The translations under genes were made by a program, and so were the position numbers. From a virus (lineage: Duplodnaviria > Heunggongvirae > Uroviricota > Caudoviricetes), in IMG/VR virus record IMGVR_UViG_2651869785_000017: a DNA stretch of 4,859 nucleotides. One strand, written 5' to 3'. The stretch's first letter is position 1. Each line of letters begins with the position of its first letter. Under the pieces are notes generated by a model. That model was not told the DNA's origin, searched no databases, and saw only the letters and a program-made list of their open reading frames with translations. Below, in pieces: positions 1 through 4,859 of this stretch.

Positions 1-78
1 TATTGCGCAGAGTGATTACTGTCGGATATTATTCGCCAGCTGAAATATTACTTCACGTTTTGTTGTTTATTCCTTGCC

Positions 79-107
79 GCCCGCGTCTCCCAGCGCGGGC
101 TTTTTTT
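79..107 (+). terminator. Rho-independent terminator (plus-strand orientation)
   Basis: Perfect 7-bp GC-rich stem GCCCGCG (79-85) / CGCGGGC (94-100) with an 8-nt loop, followed directly by T7 (101-107). No U-run on the other strand, so it acts on a plus-strand transcript entering from the left edge. Confidence 0.6.
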
Positions 108-119
108 GTCCATAAGAAA

Positions 120-138
120 GCCCCTCCGGAGAGGGGCT
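120..138 (-). terminator. Candidate terminator hairpin (minus-strand orientation)
   Basis: Perfect 7-bp stem GCCCCTC (120-126) / GAGGGGC (131-137) with tetraloop CGGA. On the minus strand it is followed by UUUCUUAUGG, a weak U tract. Back-to-back with the 79-107 terminator. Confidence 0.35.
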
Positions 139-349
139 GGAGAGTGGCGCTATGTGCCATTGCATGGTGCCGGGTGCCTCCCGGTGAGTTCAGTATCAGC
201 ACCTGAACCCGCACAGAAAGGATAAGGGTCGGTGACAAAACACCAGTTGCTGATTGCCCCTCCGCACAGGGGGATTCACCATGCCAGTTTCTTTTAACAA
301 ACTCCCCGCAAACCAGACAACAGTCAACCGCCTGAATTGTGAGACATTT

Positions 350-373
350 AAAAAAAAGCCCGCAAAAGCGAGC
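350..373 (-). terminator. Rho-independent terminator downstream of the tRNA cluster
   Basis: Minus-strand transcript reads GCUCGC-UUUU-GCGGGC (6-bp stem with one G-U wobble) followed by U8 (plus-strand A run 350-357). It lies 16 nt past the 3' end of the last tRNA. Confidence 0.55.
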
Positions 374-388
374 CAGGGAAAATAAGTG

Positions 389-465
389 TGGCGCGTTCTA
401 CTGTATTCGAACCAGTGACCGATTGCTTAGAAGGCAATTGCTCTGTCCGGCTGAGCTAACAACGC
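389..465 (-). tRNA. tRNA-Arg (anticodon UCU), argO-like, slightly imperfect
   Basis: Hand-folded cloverleaf from the reverse complement: acceptor GCGTTGT/AGAACGC (6 of 7 pairs, G6:G67 mismatch), D stem GCTC/GAGC with GG in the D loop, anticodon stem ATTGC/GCAAT, loop CTTCTAA (anticodon TCT), T arm ACTGG-TTCGAAT-ACAGT (G53:A61 mismatch), discriminator G, CCA encoded. Not run through tRNAscan-SE. Confidence 0.65.
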
Positions 466-481
466 AGGATACAGATAATGA

Positions 482-555
482 ACCGCCTTCGGGGACCCGA
501 ACTCCGCGCAACCAGCTTCGAAGGCTGGCGCTCTTTCCTGATGAGCTAATGGCGG
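482..555 (-). tRNA. tRNA-Arg-like (anticodon UCG as folded by hand), argN-like; possibly degenerate
   Basis: Reverse complement folds as acceptor CCGCCAT/AAGGCGG (6 of 7, A6:A67 mismatch), D stem GCTC/GAGC with loop ATCAGGAAA, anticodon stem CCAGC/GCTGG (perfect), loop CTTCGAA (anticodon TCG), T arm CGGAG-TTCGGGT-CCCCG (one mismatch). The 3' end is followed by TCA, not an encoded CCA. It sits 7 nt after the tRNA-Ile gene. Confidence 0.5.
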
Positions 556-562
556 TATGTAA

Positions 563-638
563 TGGTGGCCCTTGCTGGATTTGAACCAGCGACCTGGCGA
601 TTATGAGTCGCTCGCTCTCACCACTGAGCTAAAGGGCC
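563..638 (-). tRNA. tRNA-Ile (anticodon CAU, lysidine type; ileX/ileZ-like), formally Met/Ile ambiguous
   Basis: Reverse complement GGCCCTTTAGCTCAGTGGTGAGAGCGAGCGACTCATAATCGCCAGGTCGCTGGTTCAAATCCAGCAAGGGCCACCA: acceptor 7 of 7, D stem GCTC/GAGC, anticodon loop CTCATAA, T arm GCTGG-TTCAAAT-CCAGC, CCA encoded. Closely resembles my recollection of E. coli ileX (tRNA-Ile2) and not elongator tRNA-Met. Confidence 0.85.
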
Positions 639-666
639 GAGCCAAAAAATAATAATCAGATGAAAA

Positions 667-1380
667 TCAATAATCAAGCCCTTGCCTGGATACATATCTG
701 TCTGGCGGGAAGCCATAATAGCGGTGAAATACAGAAATAAAGTAGGACCTGCTTGAATAACCGCATTTTTCTGCTATAGCCTGTCCATATCCATGCCGGG
801 AACATAACATATTTACAGCAACACGCATCCGCTCTTCCAGCAACAAGCGACTGAACATGCCCCCTTCATTTTTCAGTTTTGTCTTTAACAAACTCTCACT
901 CATATGCAACTGTAGAGCAATCGCACCAAGCGTCCAGCTTGCTGATATATCTGTCTGAATTATCGCCCTGACTTTGGCACTTATGCTGGATAAACATCCA
1001 CTTAAAAACAATGACATCCGTTCATCTGTTTCAAACAGAGACAGGCAGGCCATCATAAGAAACATATCCGTGGCCTCTCCGGAAAATCCCTGGCTGGTAA
1101 TTAAAGCCGCAGCCAACGCAGGATTGTTGGGTTCCAGCAACAGGTAAAGCGGAATGTCAGTCAGACGAGTCCTCGTCAGCTTATGCTGACTTTCCAGATA
1201 TTGACTTACGACGGATTCGCTTATATCGACAATTTTAACTTTGCCATAATGCATAAGGAAAAGCTCCCTGATGCATTTGGTGGCCAGAACAACTGAGCCT
1301 GGCTTAAGTGACAACGTATCCTTTTCAAGAAAAATATTAATTGGGGAGCAAACCATGATAACTGAACAGACAACAGCCAT
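667..1380 (-). CDS. AraC/XylS-family transcriptional regulator (237 aa as drawn)
   Basis: The C-terminal ~100 aa (approx. 667-970) carry the AraC-type double HTH signature (WTLGAIALQLHMSESLLKTKLK...RMRVAVNMLCSRHGYGQAIAEKCGYSSRSYFISVFHRYYGFPPDRY). The N-terminal part is short for the family. Start is ambiguous: ATG at 1380 has no clear SD, whereas the in-frame ATG at 1254 (MHYGKV..., 195 aa) has a GGGAG SD 9 nt upstream. Confidence 0.85.
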   Translation of the reverse strand: MAVVCSVIMVCSPINIFLEKDTLSLKPGSVVLATKCIRELFLMHYGKVKIVDISESVVSQYLESQHKLTRTRLTDIPLYLLLEPNNPALAAALITSQGFSGEATDMFLMMACLSLFETDERMSLFLSGCLSSISAKVRAIIQTDISASWTLGAIALQLHMSESLLKTKLKNEGGMFSRLLLEERMRVAVNMLCSRHGYGQAIAEKCGYSSRSYFISVFHRYYGFPPDRYVSRQGLDY

Positions 1381-1415
1381 TATAATTTTACTTTCATTAG
1401 CAATTGGTTAGCTCA

Positions 1416-1446
1416 ATTATAGCCCCAAAAGGTAAATTATCATCAA
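1416..1446 (-). promoter_or_regulatory. Candidate sigma70 promoter for the AraC-like gene
   Basis: Minus-strand TTGATG (-35, complement of 1441-1446) and TATAAT (-10, complement of 1416-1421) with a 19-bp spacer, which is longer than optimal. A C7/G7 homopolymer (1475-1481) lies just upstream. Confidence 0.3.
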
Positions 1447-1502
1447 CACATAAGCAAAGGACTGACAGGTGTCGCCCCCCCACCAGCCGCCCATTCACCA
1501 CA

Positions 1503-1528
1503 AATAAAAAGCCTTCAGGACTGAAGGC
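1503..1528 (-). terminator. Rho-independent terminator after the small winged-helix ORF
   Basis: Hairpin GCCTTCAG..CTGAAGGC (1511-1528), overlapping the ORF stop codon, followed on the minus strand by UUUUUAUU (plus-strand 1503-1510). Confidence 0.5.
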
Positions 1529-1712
1529 GTCTGTAACAACCGCACTGATAGTCTGCCAGACCCGCCATAACAAGCTGGGTCAGTATTAACTGGCAGCGTT
1601 CGCGTGAAAGGTAAGTATTCTGCGCAATCTCCCCGACTGTCGCCGGTTCGGTAACGCTTAATTCATCAAACACAACTCTGGCGGTTTCTGTCATATCCTG
1701 CTGTTTCAGCAT
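1515..1712 (-). CDS. Small hypothetical protein (65 aa), possible winged-helix DNA-binding protein (PapI/FaeA-like pattern)
   Basis: Intact ORF with its own downstream terminator and a weak AAGGG SD-like element about 9 nt upstream of the ATG. The segment GEIAQNTYLSRERCQLILTQLVMAGL resembles the recognition-helix region of small wHTH regulators. Composition matches the phage backbone, not the AT-rich cassette. Homology is from memory only. Confidence 0.45.
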   Translation of the reverse strand: MLKQQDMTETARVVFDELSVTEPATVGEIAQNTYLSRERCQLILTQLVMAGLADYQCGCYRRLQS

Positions 1713-1836
1713 GTCTTTTTACCCTTTCCGGTTAACGTGACATACCAATAACTCTTGTCTAAAAAGCCAGCAAGATAAAAAGCCAGTATTCACGACCACC
1801 AGCGTGTTTACTGTACTGCACCAAGTTTACAGGTAC

Positions 1837-1861
1837 AAAAAACCCGCTCAGTGGCGGGTTT
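1837..1861 (-). terminator. Terminator-like hairpin in the divergent intergenic region (stronger on the minus strand)
   Basis: Stem CCCGC (1843-1847) / GCGGG (1854-1858) with loop TCAGTG, flanked by A6 on the left and TTT on the right. The minus-strand transcript gets hairpin plus U6; the plus-strand transcript gets hairpin plus UUUAAGUUGUG. Confidence 0.45.
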
Positions 1862-1931
1862 AAGTTGTGTGGCGAAGTAACCACTCTTAACACAATACAA
1901 TACTTTTTGCGTACGCGTTAGTGTTTTGATA

Positions 1932-1978: not shown

Positions 1979-3154
1979 ATGGATATAACTTGTTTAGAAT
2001 GTGGCAATGTTCTTGACGACCCAACTGTAGCTTGCGATAAATGCGGTGCCACGCCTCATGTTGTAGTGCTGGGCAAACAATCGTACTTTCCTATTGGTGC
2101 TGTAACAGCAAATCTTGAAAAAAATGATTCAAGAGCATTTGATTATCGATTAGGTGAAGTTTGGGATCTAAAAAATGAAGTCACATCTGAATTCATAACC
2201 AGAATTGAGAAAAAATTTAGCCGAAAAAACAAATTTCATAACTTCCTAGACTCAGATCACAACCCTTCATCCATTCCTACGATCCTAAAAAAATACATTA
2301 ATAAAAATAATGAATTCATTGATTTATCTAGAGCTATAATAGAGAAGCTTAAACATAATGCTAATAACGAATCGAGAGTTGCCCAACTTCAGGGGGGGAG
2401 CGTTGTTTTCATCCACTATAAGTCTACCGAACCAGAGGATTTGGGGAAACTTCTAATCGTAATGGTTGATAAACAAAGCGCCTATGACTTTGATTCGGAT
2501 AAGTTGACCCCAACAAGATTAAATCCAATTAATACCGATGCCTTACGGCAGGCTGCGATGTTCGATTTAACTTTATTCGAAGCCAGTTATCCAGAAAACA
2601 AGGGTGACTCATATGTACATTTCTTGCAAGGTAAATCTAAAAGCGATTTTTTCAAAGACTCATTAGGTTGCCGACATGATTCGGACAATAAAAGAAGCAT
2701 TCAGCAATTATTCAGTGCTATAGATATTTTTGCTAGTAAAAACTCACTCGGTCGTGTACTGCGTGATACTATTGACAATGAAGTTAAATCCTTACTGGAA
2801 AAAAAATCAAAAGATAAACACGGAAATAAGTCCGTTAAGATAGAGGATATTTCAAAAATAATTGACTCATGCCTGACTGATTCACACAAATGTAAGGGAA
2901 CGTTTGTCGATTTTGTTAATCTTAATGGTTTCCAGATTGACCCTCAATTTGAACCAACTCCTAAAGCAGCTGAAAGCGCGCTTACAATTGAAGTGGCAGA
3001 TAACGACAATAATTTTAAGTTGAAAATAATGCGTGGAGCTATTGGAGACGAAAAGTCAAATAAGCCTGTAATTCTCACTGACAACAAATGCGAAATTGTG
3101 ATAAAATTGAGTCAGGCAAATTATGATGAACTCAAAAGATATAGAGACAGCTAA
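1979..3154 (+). CDS. Zn-ribbon + NdpA/YejK-like (NA37 family) nucleoid-associated-protein homolog, 391 aa; cassette gene 1
   Basis: Hand-verified translation. Residues 5-22 form a CxxC-x10-CxxC zinc ribbon (CLECGNVLDDPTVACDKC). Residues ~138-228 (GGSVVFIHYKS...LLIVMVDKQ...DLTLFEASYPENKGDSYVHFLQGKSKSDFFKDSLG) align by eye with the conserved core of E. coli YejK (GGFVLFCHY...[23 protein letters not shown]). Strongly AT-rich and K/N/I-rich, unlike the flanking DNA. Confidence 0.8.
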   Translation: MDITCLECGNVLDDPTVACDKCGATPHVVVLGKQSYFPIGAVTANLEKNDSRAFDYRLGEVWDLKNEVTSEFITRIEKKFSRKNKFHNFLDSDHNPSSIPTILKKYINKNNEFIDLSRAIIEKLKHNANNESRVAQLQGGSVVFIHYKSTEPEDLGKLLIVMVDKQSAYDFDSDKLTPTRLNPINTDALRQAAMFDLTLFEASYPENKGDSYVHFLQGKSKSDFFKDSLGCRHDSDNKRSIQQLFSAIDIFASKNSLGRVLRDTIDNEVKSLLEKKSKDKHGNKSVKIEDISKIIDSCLTDSHKCKGTFVDFVNLNGFQIDPQFEPTPKAAESALTIEVADNDNNFKLKIMRGAIGDEKSNKPVILTDNKCEIVIKLSQANYDELKRYRDS

Positions 3155-3156
3155 TA

Positions 3157-4371
3157 ATGACAATTGCTGATGACTTATCAAGATTAGCGCAGATTATTAA
3201 CGGAGCCTCAAGCAGAGTTGAGGGCTACTACACTGTCATAAGTCTTGAAGAAAGCATTGTTATTGTAAATAGTTCTGAAATAATTAGACTGTTACAATCT
3301 ATAGGTTATAAAAAGGCAACAACCTGCATCGAAAATAATGAAATTTGGCTAGATCGCCAAGCTTCATCTTGGGATGACGCTATAATTTATGAGAATGTTG
3401 AGTCTTTTTGGTCTAGAGTAAACACCCAAAACGCTCTTCCGAAAAATTATATCATCGGAACGCCGTTAATACTCCCTACTTCTAAGAATGAAAGCATCGA
3501 AAAAATCCATATTTTCTTTATGTGGAAAGATATCCTTTCATTAATTGCTGATCATCATAACAGTGACTGCTCTGTCTTATTTTTCACCAATGAAGACAAA
3601 AGTTATACAGTCGAACTCACGCATTTTTTACAATATAGCGAGATTAATCGCTTATCGAACTCGTCTCTTAAATATGAAATTATAAAGGAGCTTCTCGACA
3701 CAATAAAAATCAATGATTTACACAAAAGCGAGCGCAAGCTCGTTATACGCTCAGCCATAAACGAAGTATTTAAAGCAAATGGTACGTTCAATTTCTTTGA
3801 CTTGCTTAACTCTACTGAACTCGTCAGGAAAAAATATGATGAACTATATGAGATTTACACAAAGAGGTTTTCTGTAAATAAAATTCTTAACGAACTCGAT
3901 GAGAAAAATCTTGAGTTCACGAGTAAAATTAACGAATTCATATCATCTAATCAGACAAAAGCATTGACTATTCCCGGTGCATTAATAGCTGCTGGTGGCT
4001 TAGTGAAGGCTAATGAAACAACCGAAGCAATATTGATTATCGCAGGACTTTGGATGATAAAAAAAGTCAATTACATTTCTATTGAGATATTCAATGAAAC
4101 ATTCGACAACTTACGTTCTCGAGTGGAGTCCGCTTTCGATAAGTATTTAAAGTTTGAAGAAAATAAAGAAATCAAAGATAATGCAGATAGTATTAAGAGT
4201 AGCATTACAGGTTTGATTGATAAAGCTAAAAAAAGGATGAGAACTGTTAAATATCTCGCATCAGCCATGTTTTATGGAGGCCTTATTTACGTTGGATATA
4301 AACAGTTCCCAGTCTTTTTTGAAAAATCGGCAGTAAATCTATTTTATTTTTTATGCCATACTATAAGCTAA
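3157..4371 (+). CDS. Hypothetical membrane-anchored protein, 404 aa; cassette gene 2
   Basis: ATG lies 2 nt after the gene-1 stop (TAATAATG), so likely translationally coupled. A ~270-aa N-terminal soluble region has no recognisable catalytic motif (no Walker A, HExxH or obvious nuclease motif). Hydrophobic segments at approx. 3964-4020 (ALTIPGALIAAGGLV), 4030-4070 (AILIIAGLWMI) and 4255-4300 (YLASAMFYGGLIYVGY). Same AT-rich composition as gene 1. Confidence 0.75.
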   Translation: MTIADDLSRLAQIINGASSRVEGYYTVISLEESIVIVNSSEIIRLLQSIGYKKATTCIENNEIWLDRQASSWDDAIIYENVESFWSRVNTQNALPKNYIIGTPLILPTSKNESIEKIHIFFMWKDILSLIADHHNSDCSVLFFTNEDKSYTVELTHFLQYSEINRLSNSSLKYEIIKELLDTIKINDLHKSERKLVIRSAINEVFKANGTFNFFDLLNSTELVRKKYDELYEIYTKRFSVNKILNELDEKNLEFTSKINEFISSNQTKALTIPGALIAAGGLVKANETTEAILIIAGLWMIKKVNYISIEIFNETFDNLRSRVESAFDKYLKFEENKEIKDNADSIKSSITGLIDKAKKRMRTVKYLASAMFYGGLIYVGYKQFPVFFEKSAVNLFYFLCHTIS

Positions 4372-4707
4372 CATTGCTAAACAGCCGTCAACAAACCCCA
4401 TTGCAGTTTGCAGTTCCTTCCTAATTGTGCCATCAGAGCATTTTCTCTTCTTCGCAATAGTACGTAATGAGATACCGATAACAAAGTGGGCGATGATGAG
4501 CTCATATTCCTCTGGTTTATACCTTCTCAACCGAGCCACACAACTGTCTATCATGATGCCTTCGTCATCATCACACTGAATCCGTGACTTTTTGCCATGA
4601 GGTAAAAGTCCCTTGAAACCAGCCGCTATCGGCTGCCAGTCCACTCCGCTATTGTCTGAAGCAGCCCAAGCTCCCCAACGATCCATTACTTCATACATAT
4701 CACGCAT
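4351..4707 (-). CDS. Phage antitermination protein Q (Phage_antitermQ family, QuuD-like), 118 aa
   Basis: Translation MRDMYEVMDRWGAWAASDNSGVDWQPIAAGFKGLLPHGKKSRIQCDDDEG...CSDGTIRKEL matches my recollection of the DLP12 QuuD/Q-family pattern (MRD...ERWGAWAA...IAAGFKGL...SR.QC.DDD...CSDG). ATG at 4707 has a GGAG SD 7 nt upstream; the ORF track's extra 5 codons start at an in-frame TTG at 4722. Confidence 0.85.
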   Translation of the reverse strand: MRDMYEVMDRWGAWAASDNSGVDWQPIAAGFKGLLPHGKKSRIQCDDDEGIMIDSCVARLRRYKPEEYELIIAHFVIGISLRTIAKKRKCSDGTIRKELQTAMGFVDGCLAMLAYSMA

Positions 4708-4724
4708 CAACTTTCTCCACAAAA

Positions 4725-4859
4725 TCAGGCCAGCACACCAATTGCCAGCGCACGATCGATAAAACGAAATATCAACTCCAGCTGGGAGCCATACTTCTCT
4801 TCAAATGCCACGGTATCCGCATGCAGCTCGTCGTGATGCTTTCTGCACAAAGGCAACAC
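4725..4859 (-). CDS. C-terminal fragment of a lambdoid nin-region protein (possibly DUF1364/YbcO-like); gene runs off the window edge
   Basis: Open frame to the window edge ending ...LPLCRKHHDELHADTVAFEEKYGSQLELIFRFIDRALAIGVLA with stop at 4725-4727, 17 nt upstream of the Q start codon. The C..HDE motif and its position just before Q resemble YbcO-type proteins; family assignment is from memory only. Confidence 0.45.
   Translation of the reverse strand: MLPLCRKHHDELHADTVAFEEKYGSQLELIFRFIDRALAIGVLA

Follow-up and report, generated by a model that had tools for sequence, protein, structure and literature searches.

A probable psrB allele, encoding a YdeO-like AraC/XylS regulator, beside tRNA-Ile2 in a lambdoid prophage of Escherichia coli

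The DNA analysed here, referred to below as the window, is a stretch of 4859 bp that matches E. coli lambdoid prophages over its full length, at 99.2-99.6% in 20 complete genomes. O104:H4 strains are among these, and in O104:H4 str. 2009EL-2071 the prophage around the matching locus carries terminase, lysis, Q, replication and repressor genes. The genes and other features of the window are listed in Table 1. An initial annotation had described a gene for an AraC-family regulator, oriented with the antiterminator gene Q and with the tRNA genes; we found its open reading frame to be intact, and this gene (psr), Q and the three tRNA genes all lie in one orientation, on the minus strand. The same annotation had placed psr 29 bp upstream of tRNA-Ile: the two do adjoin, but 28 nt (639-666) separate the psr stop codon from the first tRNA. 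This tRNA, with anticodon CAT, is reported as Met(CAT) by ARAGORN and as tRNA-Ile (ileZ, cat) by RefSeq and the Sakai annotation. Within its lambdoid prophage, psr is an accessory gene carried between Q and the lysis genes.

Table 1. Features of the 4859-bp window, with position, strand and the evidence on which each assignment is based
Feature	Position	Strand	Evidence
DUF968 gene, 3' end	4725-4859	-	
Antiterminator Q	4351-4722	-	PF06530, E 3e-47
DS-1 two-gene cassette	1979-3154 and 3157-4371	+	NCBIfam DS1_1, 451 bits (cutoff 330), and DS1_2, 375 bits (cutoff 315); anti-phage equivalogs
65-aa ORF	1515-1712	-	phrog_331; weak TrmB-like winged helix match
Terminator-like hairpin between 65-aa ORF and psr promoter	1511-1528	-	hairpin scan
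Predicted sigma-70 promoter of psr	1416-1443	-	ATGATA, 16 nt, TATAAT; 10/12 matches
psrB-type gene, 237-aa AraC/XylS regulator	667-1380	-	ORF, ATG start
tRNA-Ile2, anticodon CAT, ileZ	563-638	-	tRNA scan and annotation
tRNA-Arg (TCG), argN	480-556	-	tRNA scan and annotation
tRNA-Arg (TCT), argO	389-465	-	tRNA scan and annotation
Intrinsic-terminator-like hairpin and T-run, end of psr-tRNA unit	357-374	-	hairpin scan
psr-tRNA block, 1124 bp: promoter, psr, three tRNAs, terminator	355-1478	-	present or absent together
Match to sRNA family STnc100	108-313	-	143 bits

On one side of the psr-tRNA block, the match to STnc100 is full length and lies upstream of a SASA/NanS-type esterase gene; the element is also found in Sakai prophage Sp4, at the O157 OK1 locus and in phage phiSTEC1575-Stx2k. 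A 154-nt sRNA of EDL933, EvrS, maps to the interval that separates z1789 (psrA) from the esterase gene (PMC11774850), and EvrS and the STnc100 match may be the same element. We considered whether STnc100 might be a late-promoter leader of the lambda-6S type and dropped the idea, as its Rfam model has no match to lambda pR'-tR' and the element follows stx2B in the Stx2k phage. On the other side, the DS-1 cassette (1979-4371) is convergent with Q and overlaps the stop-codon end of Q by 21 bp. It is present at 99% identity or more in 106 complete E. coli genomes, with a Q gene abutting it every time, and its DS1_1 match is to the equivalog of a nucleoid-associated anti-phage protein. The slot just past the Q stop codon (window 4351-4406; L010 1137-2952) holds a different, oppositely oriented two-gene cassette in R13 and a CAAX protease gene in Sp4; this position looks like a hotspot for cargo. 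In relatives free of the cassette, homology to the window picks up again at about position 1931.

The 237-aa product of psr has a double helix-turn-helix in a C-terminal region of about 100 aa, which Pfam models detect at residues 155-230 (HTH_AraC, 50.3 bits against a cutoff of 26.6; HTH_18, 39.8 bits against 33.6). Both scores exceed the gathering thresholds and place the protein in the AraC/XylS family. Its plan is that of an N-terminal domain resembling YdeO and GadW (residues ~1-130) followed by the double helix-turn-helix (~134-233), for which the DNA-binding domain of GadX (3mkl) is the closest solved one (E 7e-19 over residues 134-233). Family phrog_1450 matches residues 1-236 (E 1.5e-98). 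Among NCBIfam models, that for YdeO (NF007407) gives the best match, covering residues 1-229 at 108.5 bits and falling below the equivalog cutoff of 348; the GadX model (NF007432) comes second with 87 bits, over the C-terminal half only, against an equivalog cutoff of 500. Given the distance of the YdeO score from its cutoff, the window protein is a paralogue of YdeO and not YdeO itself. By BLASTP, it is 31% identical to YdeO and 29% to AppY; identity to the AraC-type protein of Sakai Sp1, presumably PatE, is 37%. AlphaFold2, run on a 12-sequence alignment, returned a poor model (pLDDT 62.8, pTM 0.40), for which the top full-length matches in Foldseek were Rns, CsvR and ToxT, at a TM of only ~0.3; this ranking is consistent with the two-domain plan of AraC virulence regulators, and no more.

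A closer identity is given by O157:H7, whose strains carry two copies of psr. We found that the window protein agrees with the second O157:H7 copy (strain OK1) at 234 of 237 residues (98.7%; 708 of 714 nt), the three substitutions being A103V, H196Y and I202V, of which H196Y and I202V lie in the C-terminal DNA-binding part. Against Sakai ECs_1087, extended to the upstream ATG, agreement is at 215 of 237 residues (90.7%). The gene ecs1087 has been named psrA (PMC13502914). The two O157 copies are 91% identical to each other, in agreement with the published 90% between PsrA and PsrB (PMC10877973), so that the second copy is taken to be z2104/PsrB by elimination, without a locus tag match. The window protein thus has about 90% or more identity to PsrA or PsrB of O157:H7 and is carried on a lambdoid prophage, as are members of the Psr (prophage-encoded secretion regulator) group. 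We regard it as very likely, on these sequence comparisons, that the window gene is an intact psrB allele of this group of YdeO-like AraC/XylS activators, whose carriers are lambdoid prophages of pathogenic E. coli. The initial annotation had suspected kinship with prophage AraC-like regulators that rewire host stress or virulence regulons and had proposed classification by BLASTP and HMM searches; these lead to the Psr group, to a PsrB allele within it and so to near-identity with a published regulator. The finding is real, and the gene and its class of function are already known.

psr lies within a discrete 1.1-kb unit that has its own promoter-like site. The predicted promoter, read from 1443 to 1416, lies about 35 nt before ATG 1380 and would give a leader of about 30 nt. 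We compared this site in the window with its counterparts at the O104:H4 locus, at psrA and psrB of O157 and in phage phiSTEC1575-Stx2k. All have the same -10 hexamer, and phiSTEC1575-Stx2k alone departs in the -35 hexamer, by one substitution. The whole stretch from the 65-aa ORF through the promoter-like site to the start codon is highly conserved in the same set of loci, and the hairpin at 1511-1528 keeps its stem in phiSTEC1575-Stx2k, with a changed loop. Between psr and the tRNAs, our scan found no convincing terminator, the single candidate being a weak 5-bp hairpin (688-675) within the last part of psr itself, at its 3' end. Sister prophage L002 lacks the block 355-1478 and has 76 unrelated bases in its place, with breakpoints at 354/355 and 1478/1479; prophages of this type keep the same Q, cassette and small ORF. 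As the block is replaced whole, the promoter and terminator disappear along with psr and the three tRNAs. In one IMG/VR contig (L038 987-4028), the 1124-bp block occurs twice in tandem, at 95% and 98% DNA identity to that of the window, and the two Psr proteins encoded there, 90% and 100% identical to the window protein, are one PsrA-like and one PsrB-like, side by side. With regard to the features expected of a phage moron, an autonomous accessory transcription unit with a promoter and terminator of its own, loss and duplication as a block are seen, and the promoter and terminator are conserved predictions from consensus.

Of the 80 viral-contig psr loci, 75 have the 65-aa ORF ahead of the gene, and this ORF is still present in the psr-less L002. 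Its counterpart in Sakai Sp4, ECs_1086 (L003 18344-18583), has a 1-bp deletion and an altered C-terminus; because this is the prophage in which the studied psrA is functional, the 65-aa ORF seems dispensable for psrA function. A relationship to SafA, which has the same length and whose gene precedes ydeO in K-12, was rejected, as the two show no similarity.

The invariable coupling of psr to tRNA-Ile2 in a small transferable unit is the least ordinary thing that we observed. We surveyed 80 IMG/VR contigs that encode Psr at 90-100% identity, and in all 79 loci with room downstream a tRNA with a CAT anticodon follows 26-29 nt after the psr stop codon, across at least four upstream types of Q or antiterminator. 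Sakai Sp4, O157 OK1 and the Stx2k phage all share one order of small ORF, psr and ileZ-arg tRNAs. The setting of the gene, which the initial annotation had placed outside the canonical lambdoid late region, is not new: Sakai psrA and OK1 psrB, the two O157:H7 loci examined, occupy the same place, by ileZ-argN-argO downstream of Q. The tRNAs that come after ileZ vary (Arg-Arg; Arg alone; Lys-Thr with or without Gly; Thr-Gly with or without Val), and the psr-ileZ junction is fixed throughout, as seen in L013, L022, L042, L075, L078 and other IMG/VR loci, a pattern which suggests breakpoints of recombination within or just after the tRNA-Ile gene. The linkage does not hold in reverse. Classical Stx2a phages have ileZ without psr, and we found no remnant of psr upstream of their ileZ, where the tRNA and 2-4 nt are all that is common.

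Codon usage bears on what this coupling might mean. Of the 15 Ile codons in psr, 5 are AUA, and of its 13 Arg codons, 6 are AGA or AGG; such a share of rare codons is unusually high for E. coli, and it is these codons that ileZ and argO decode. Rare-codon use is similar in the AT-rich cassette genes and is thus not specific to psr. It is possible, though we think it unlikely, that psr and tRNA-Ile2 form an obligatory expression unit, in which one transcript from 1416-1443 would yield both the regulator mRNA and the rare-codon tRNAs, and translation of psr may need the latter. If this is true, the block would be a self-sufficient package of regulator and decoders, and this would account for the constant presence of ileZ 26-29 nt after psr, across at least four Q types and several sets of following tRNAs. 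The coupling might reflect co-transcription together with codon dependence; it might equally reflect simple co-inheritance.

The function of the Psr group is known from published work. PsrA and PsrB are AraC/XylS regulators confined to prophages, and both raise the expression of GadE and YhiF, by which type III secretion is repressed; deletion of psrA alters secretion in uninduced lysogens. Promoter binding has been reported for PsrB at hdeA (-132 to -45) and at gadE, along with better survival both in the mouse stomach and at low pH, and PatE has much the same effects (all from PMC10877973, PMC8565820). AppY, PsrB and PatE have been classed together as AraC regulators of prophage origin that feed into the AR2 acid-resistance system (PMC10057817). 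In a mutant of HnrS, a prophage sRNA that counteracts Hha/H-NS silencing, psrA and gadE are both down (PMC13502914).

By its 98.7% identity to O157:H7 PsrB, the window allele may be assigned the same function, and the following scheme is modelled on the work on PsrA, PsrB and PatE. In a lysogen, Psr would be made from its own promoter, under the H-NS/Hha-type silencing that acts on AT-rich foreign DNA. It would bind the gadE and hdeA promoter regions and so raise GadE-dependent glutamate acid resistance; in LEE-positive hosts, it would also lower type III secretion through GadE and YhiF. Transcripts of psr would read through into ileZ-argN-argO. Psr probably acts through the amount made and not through a ligand, and we know of no ligand for the Psr/YdeO-like subfamily. 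O104:H4 strains are not known to carry the LEE, and in hosts of this kind the acid-resistance arm alone would apply.

This assignment presupposes that the 237-aa protein is the real product. The Sakai annotation of ECs_1087 and many database entries use a start that gives 195 aa, corresponding to ATG 1254 in the window, and the initial annotation had called the start ambiguous between 1380 and 1254, with a strong Shine-Dalgarno sequence at the latter, adding that the sensor domain might be minimal or truncated. The alternative ATG is indeed there, with GGGAG 9 nt before it, whereas ATG 1380 has a weak Shine-Dalgarno sequence. Conservation, however, favours ATG 1380. We aligned 13 sequences (the window protein, PsrA, homologues 38-77% identical, a lambda-like phage homologue, YdeO, AppY, GadW, GadX and EnvY), and M1 and C5 are invariant in all of them; the N-terminal motif MxVxCSVI is common to YdeO (MSLVCSVI), AppY (MDYVCSVV) and GadW (MTHVCSVI). 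In homologues at 56-63% identity, the position of Met43 is occupied by Thr or Ala, so that these proteins cannot start there. The GGGAG corresponds to codons Arg38-Glu39 and reads GGGCG in PsrA, and the matches to the YdeO model and to phrog_1450 both begin at residue 1. The weak Shine-Dalgarno sequence is thus the sole counterpoint to a conserved 237-aa form. Residues 1-42 align to the N-termini of YdeO, AppY, GadW and PatE-like homologues, and the alignment with these runs from end to end with no frameshift and no truncation, which speaks against the frameshifted or truncated pseudogene that the initial annotation had named as a refutation. The N-terminal domain of about 130 aa appears from this alignment to be of the usual size for the YdeO/AppY/GadW/PatE subfamily (237-253 aa) and not truncated, and the 195-aa annotation probably leaves out 42 conserved residues. 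At least 1000 public contigs moreover encode exactly this 237-aa protein, and the frame is open in every locus examined. It is therefore highly improbable that the true product has 195 aa and a truncated N-terminal domain, or that the gene is a decaying pseudogene.

Two further readings concern what the intact regulator is for, and they turn on its surroundings. The position of psr on the late strand, between Q and the lysis genes, would suit a phage late-gene product that acts mainly in lytic growth, on phage or lysis-timing genes, and not a regulator of lysogenic conversion. The psr gene of phiSTEC1575-Stx2k stands between Q and stx2, where a late transcript starting beside Q would cross it. 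In lambda-like phages (L006 4001-4732; H87-H102), the slot from Q to the holin gene is taken by distant AraC homologues (39% identity, full length), and the Q-to-lysis slot thus carries YdeO-like regulators beyond the Psr group. We nevertheless hold this reading to be very unlikely. psr has its own conserved promoter-like site with a terminator ahead of it, which suggests expression in the lysogen and fits the phenotype of the psrA deletion in uninduced cells, and PsrB binds host promoters (PMC10877973, PMC8565820). The unit can be lost while the rest of the late region stays, and a close copy is found in only 1 of 50,697 phage records as against 726 of 5426 complete E. coli genomes. In addition to transcription from this site, psr in the window may also be read by the Q-modified late transcript. 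There is no room for a late promoter between Q and the cassette, and a search for pR' on the minus strand from 1990 to 1713, that is, from the cassette to the 65-aa ORF, found no sigma-70-like site with 8 or more of 12 matches. Terminator-like hairpins lie on this strand at 1803-1782 (from the scan) and at about 1860-1838 (by eye, absent from the scan list). The other reading, put forward in the initial annotation, is that psr regulates the cassette next door. AraC-type proteins often control neighbouring genes, the oppositely oriented DS-1 cassette starts about 600 bp upstream of psr, past the 65-aa ORF, and the region upstream of the cassette is AT-rich (38.7% GC). Against this, psr and the cassette are adjacent in only 20 genomes, from 106 with the cassette and 726 with psr; the cassette is found in 5 of the 80 viral-contig psr loci and missing from 75, L002-type prophages have it without psr, and other prophages hold other cargo in the same slot. 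The 65-aa ORF and three terminator-like hairpins (two from the scan and one by eye) also lie in between. psr and the cassette thus assort independently, which argues against a dedicated regulatory pair and is compatible with incidental binding; we consider it extremely improbable that psr is the dedicated regulator of the DS-1 cassette.

A psrB allele belongs to a family that has already been studied experimentally, in which carriage of the prophage is tied to acid resistance and also, where the host is LEE-positive, to the regulation of type III secretion. To this can be added that the annotation of ECs_1087 and many other entries probably lacks conserved N-terminal sequence, that the same psr allele is present in O104:H4-type prophages, and that psr and tRNA-Ile2 move together as a fixed unit. 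The understanding of the family is not altered by any of these three points.

Among named systems, the most distant are Rns, CsvR and ToxT, which are the best full-length structural matches (TM ~0.3) and match in sequence over residues 110-230; they differ in having only ~20% identity and in binding fatty acids in a larger N-terminal domain. YdeO, AppY, GadW and GadX of K-12 have the same two-domain plan in 242-274 aa, with 26-34% identity over the full length of the alignment, share the MxVxCSVI N-terminus and converge on gadE and the acid fitness island. In contrast to psr, their genes are chromosomal or lie on DLP12, are under EvgA or other host control and have no linked tRNA, and the scores of the window protein are far below the YdeO and GadX equivalog cutoffs (108 vs 348; 87 vs 500). 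PatE (z0321, OI-8/CP-933H), which we take to be Sakai ECs_0287, is a full-length homologue with the same N-terminal motif and, like PsrB, a prophage-borne activator of gadE and hdeAB; its identity is 37%, however, and its gene has another prophage position, beside an IS remnant at the prophage end and without adjoining tRNAs.

The two O157:H7 regulators are the closest relatives. PsrA (z1789/ECs1087, CP-933N/Sp4) is 90.7% identical (215/237), with 22 substitutions, and its locus has the order Q, cargo, small ORF, psr, ileZ-argN-argO, STnc100 and esterase, colinear with window 1-1915 at 93% DNA identity. ECs_1087 is annotated in Sakai Sp4 as an AraC-family regulator 28 bp upstream of ileZ-argN-argO, and the second O157 copy, in OK1, has flanks as at ECs_1087. 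The PsrA locus differs in its 195-aa start annotation, in the 1-bp deletion in the small upstream ORF and in its cargo after Q, a CAAX protease gene and not DS-1. PsrB (z2104, OI-57/CP-933O, O157:H7 EDL933), the name z2104 being given to the O157 copy by elimination, has the same length as the window protein and is 98.7% identical (234/237), differing at A103V, H196Y and I202V. At its locus, too, the 65-aa ORF precedes the gene, tRNA-Ile follows after 28 nt and the promoter-like site is the same, whereas the window has another type of Q, DS-1 upstream, three tRNAs where the PsrB locus has two, and a host lineage that is O104:H4-like.
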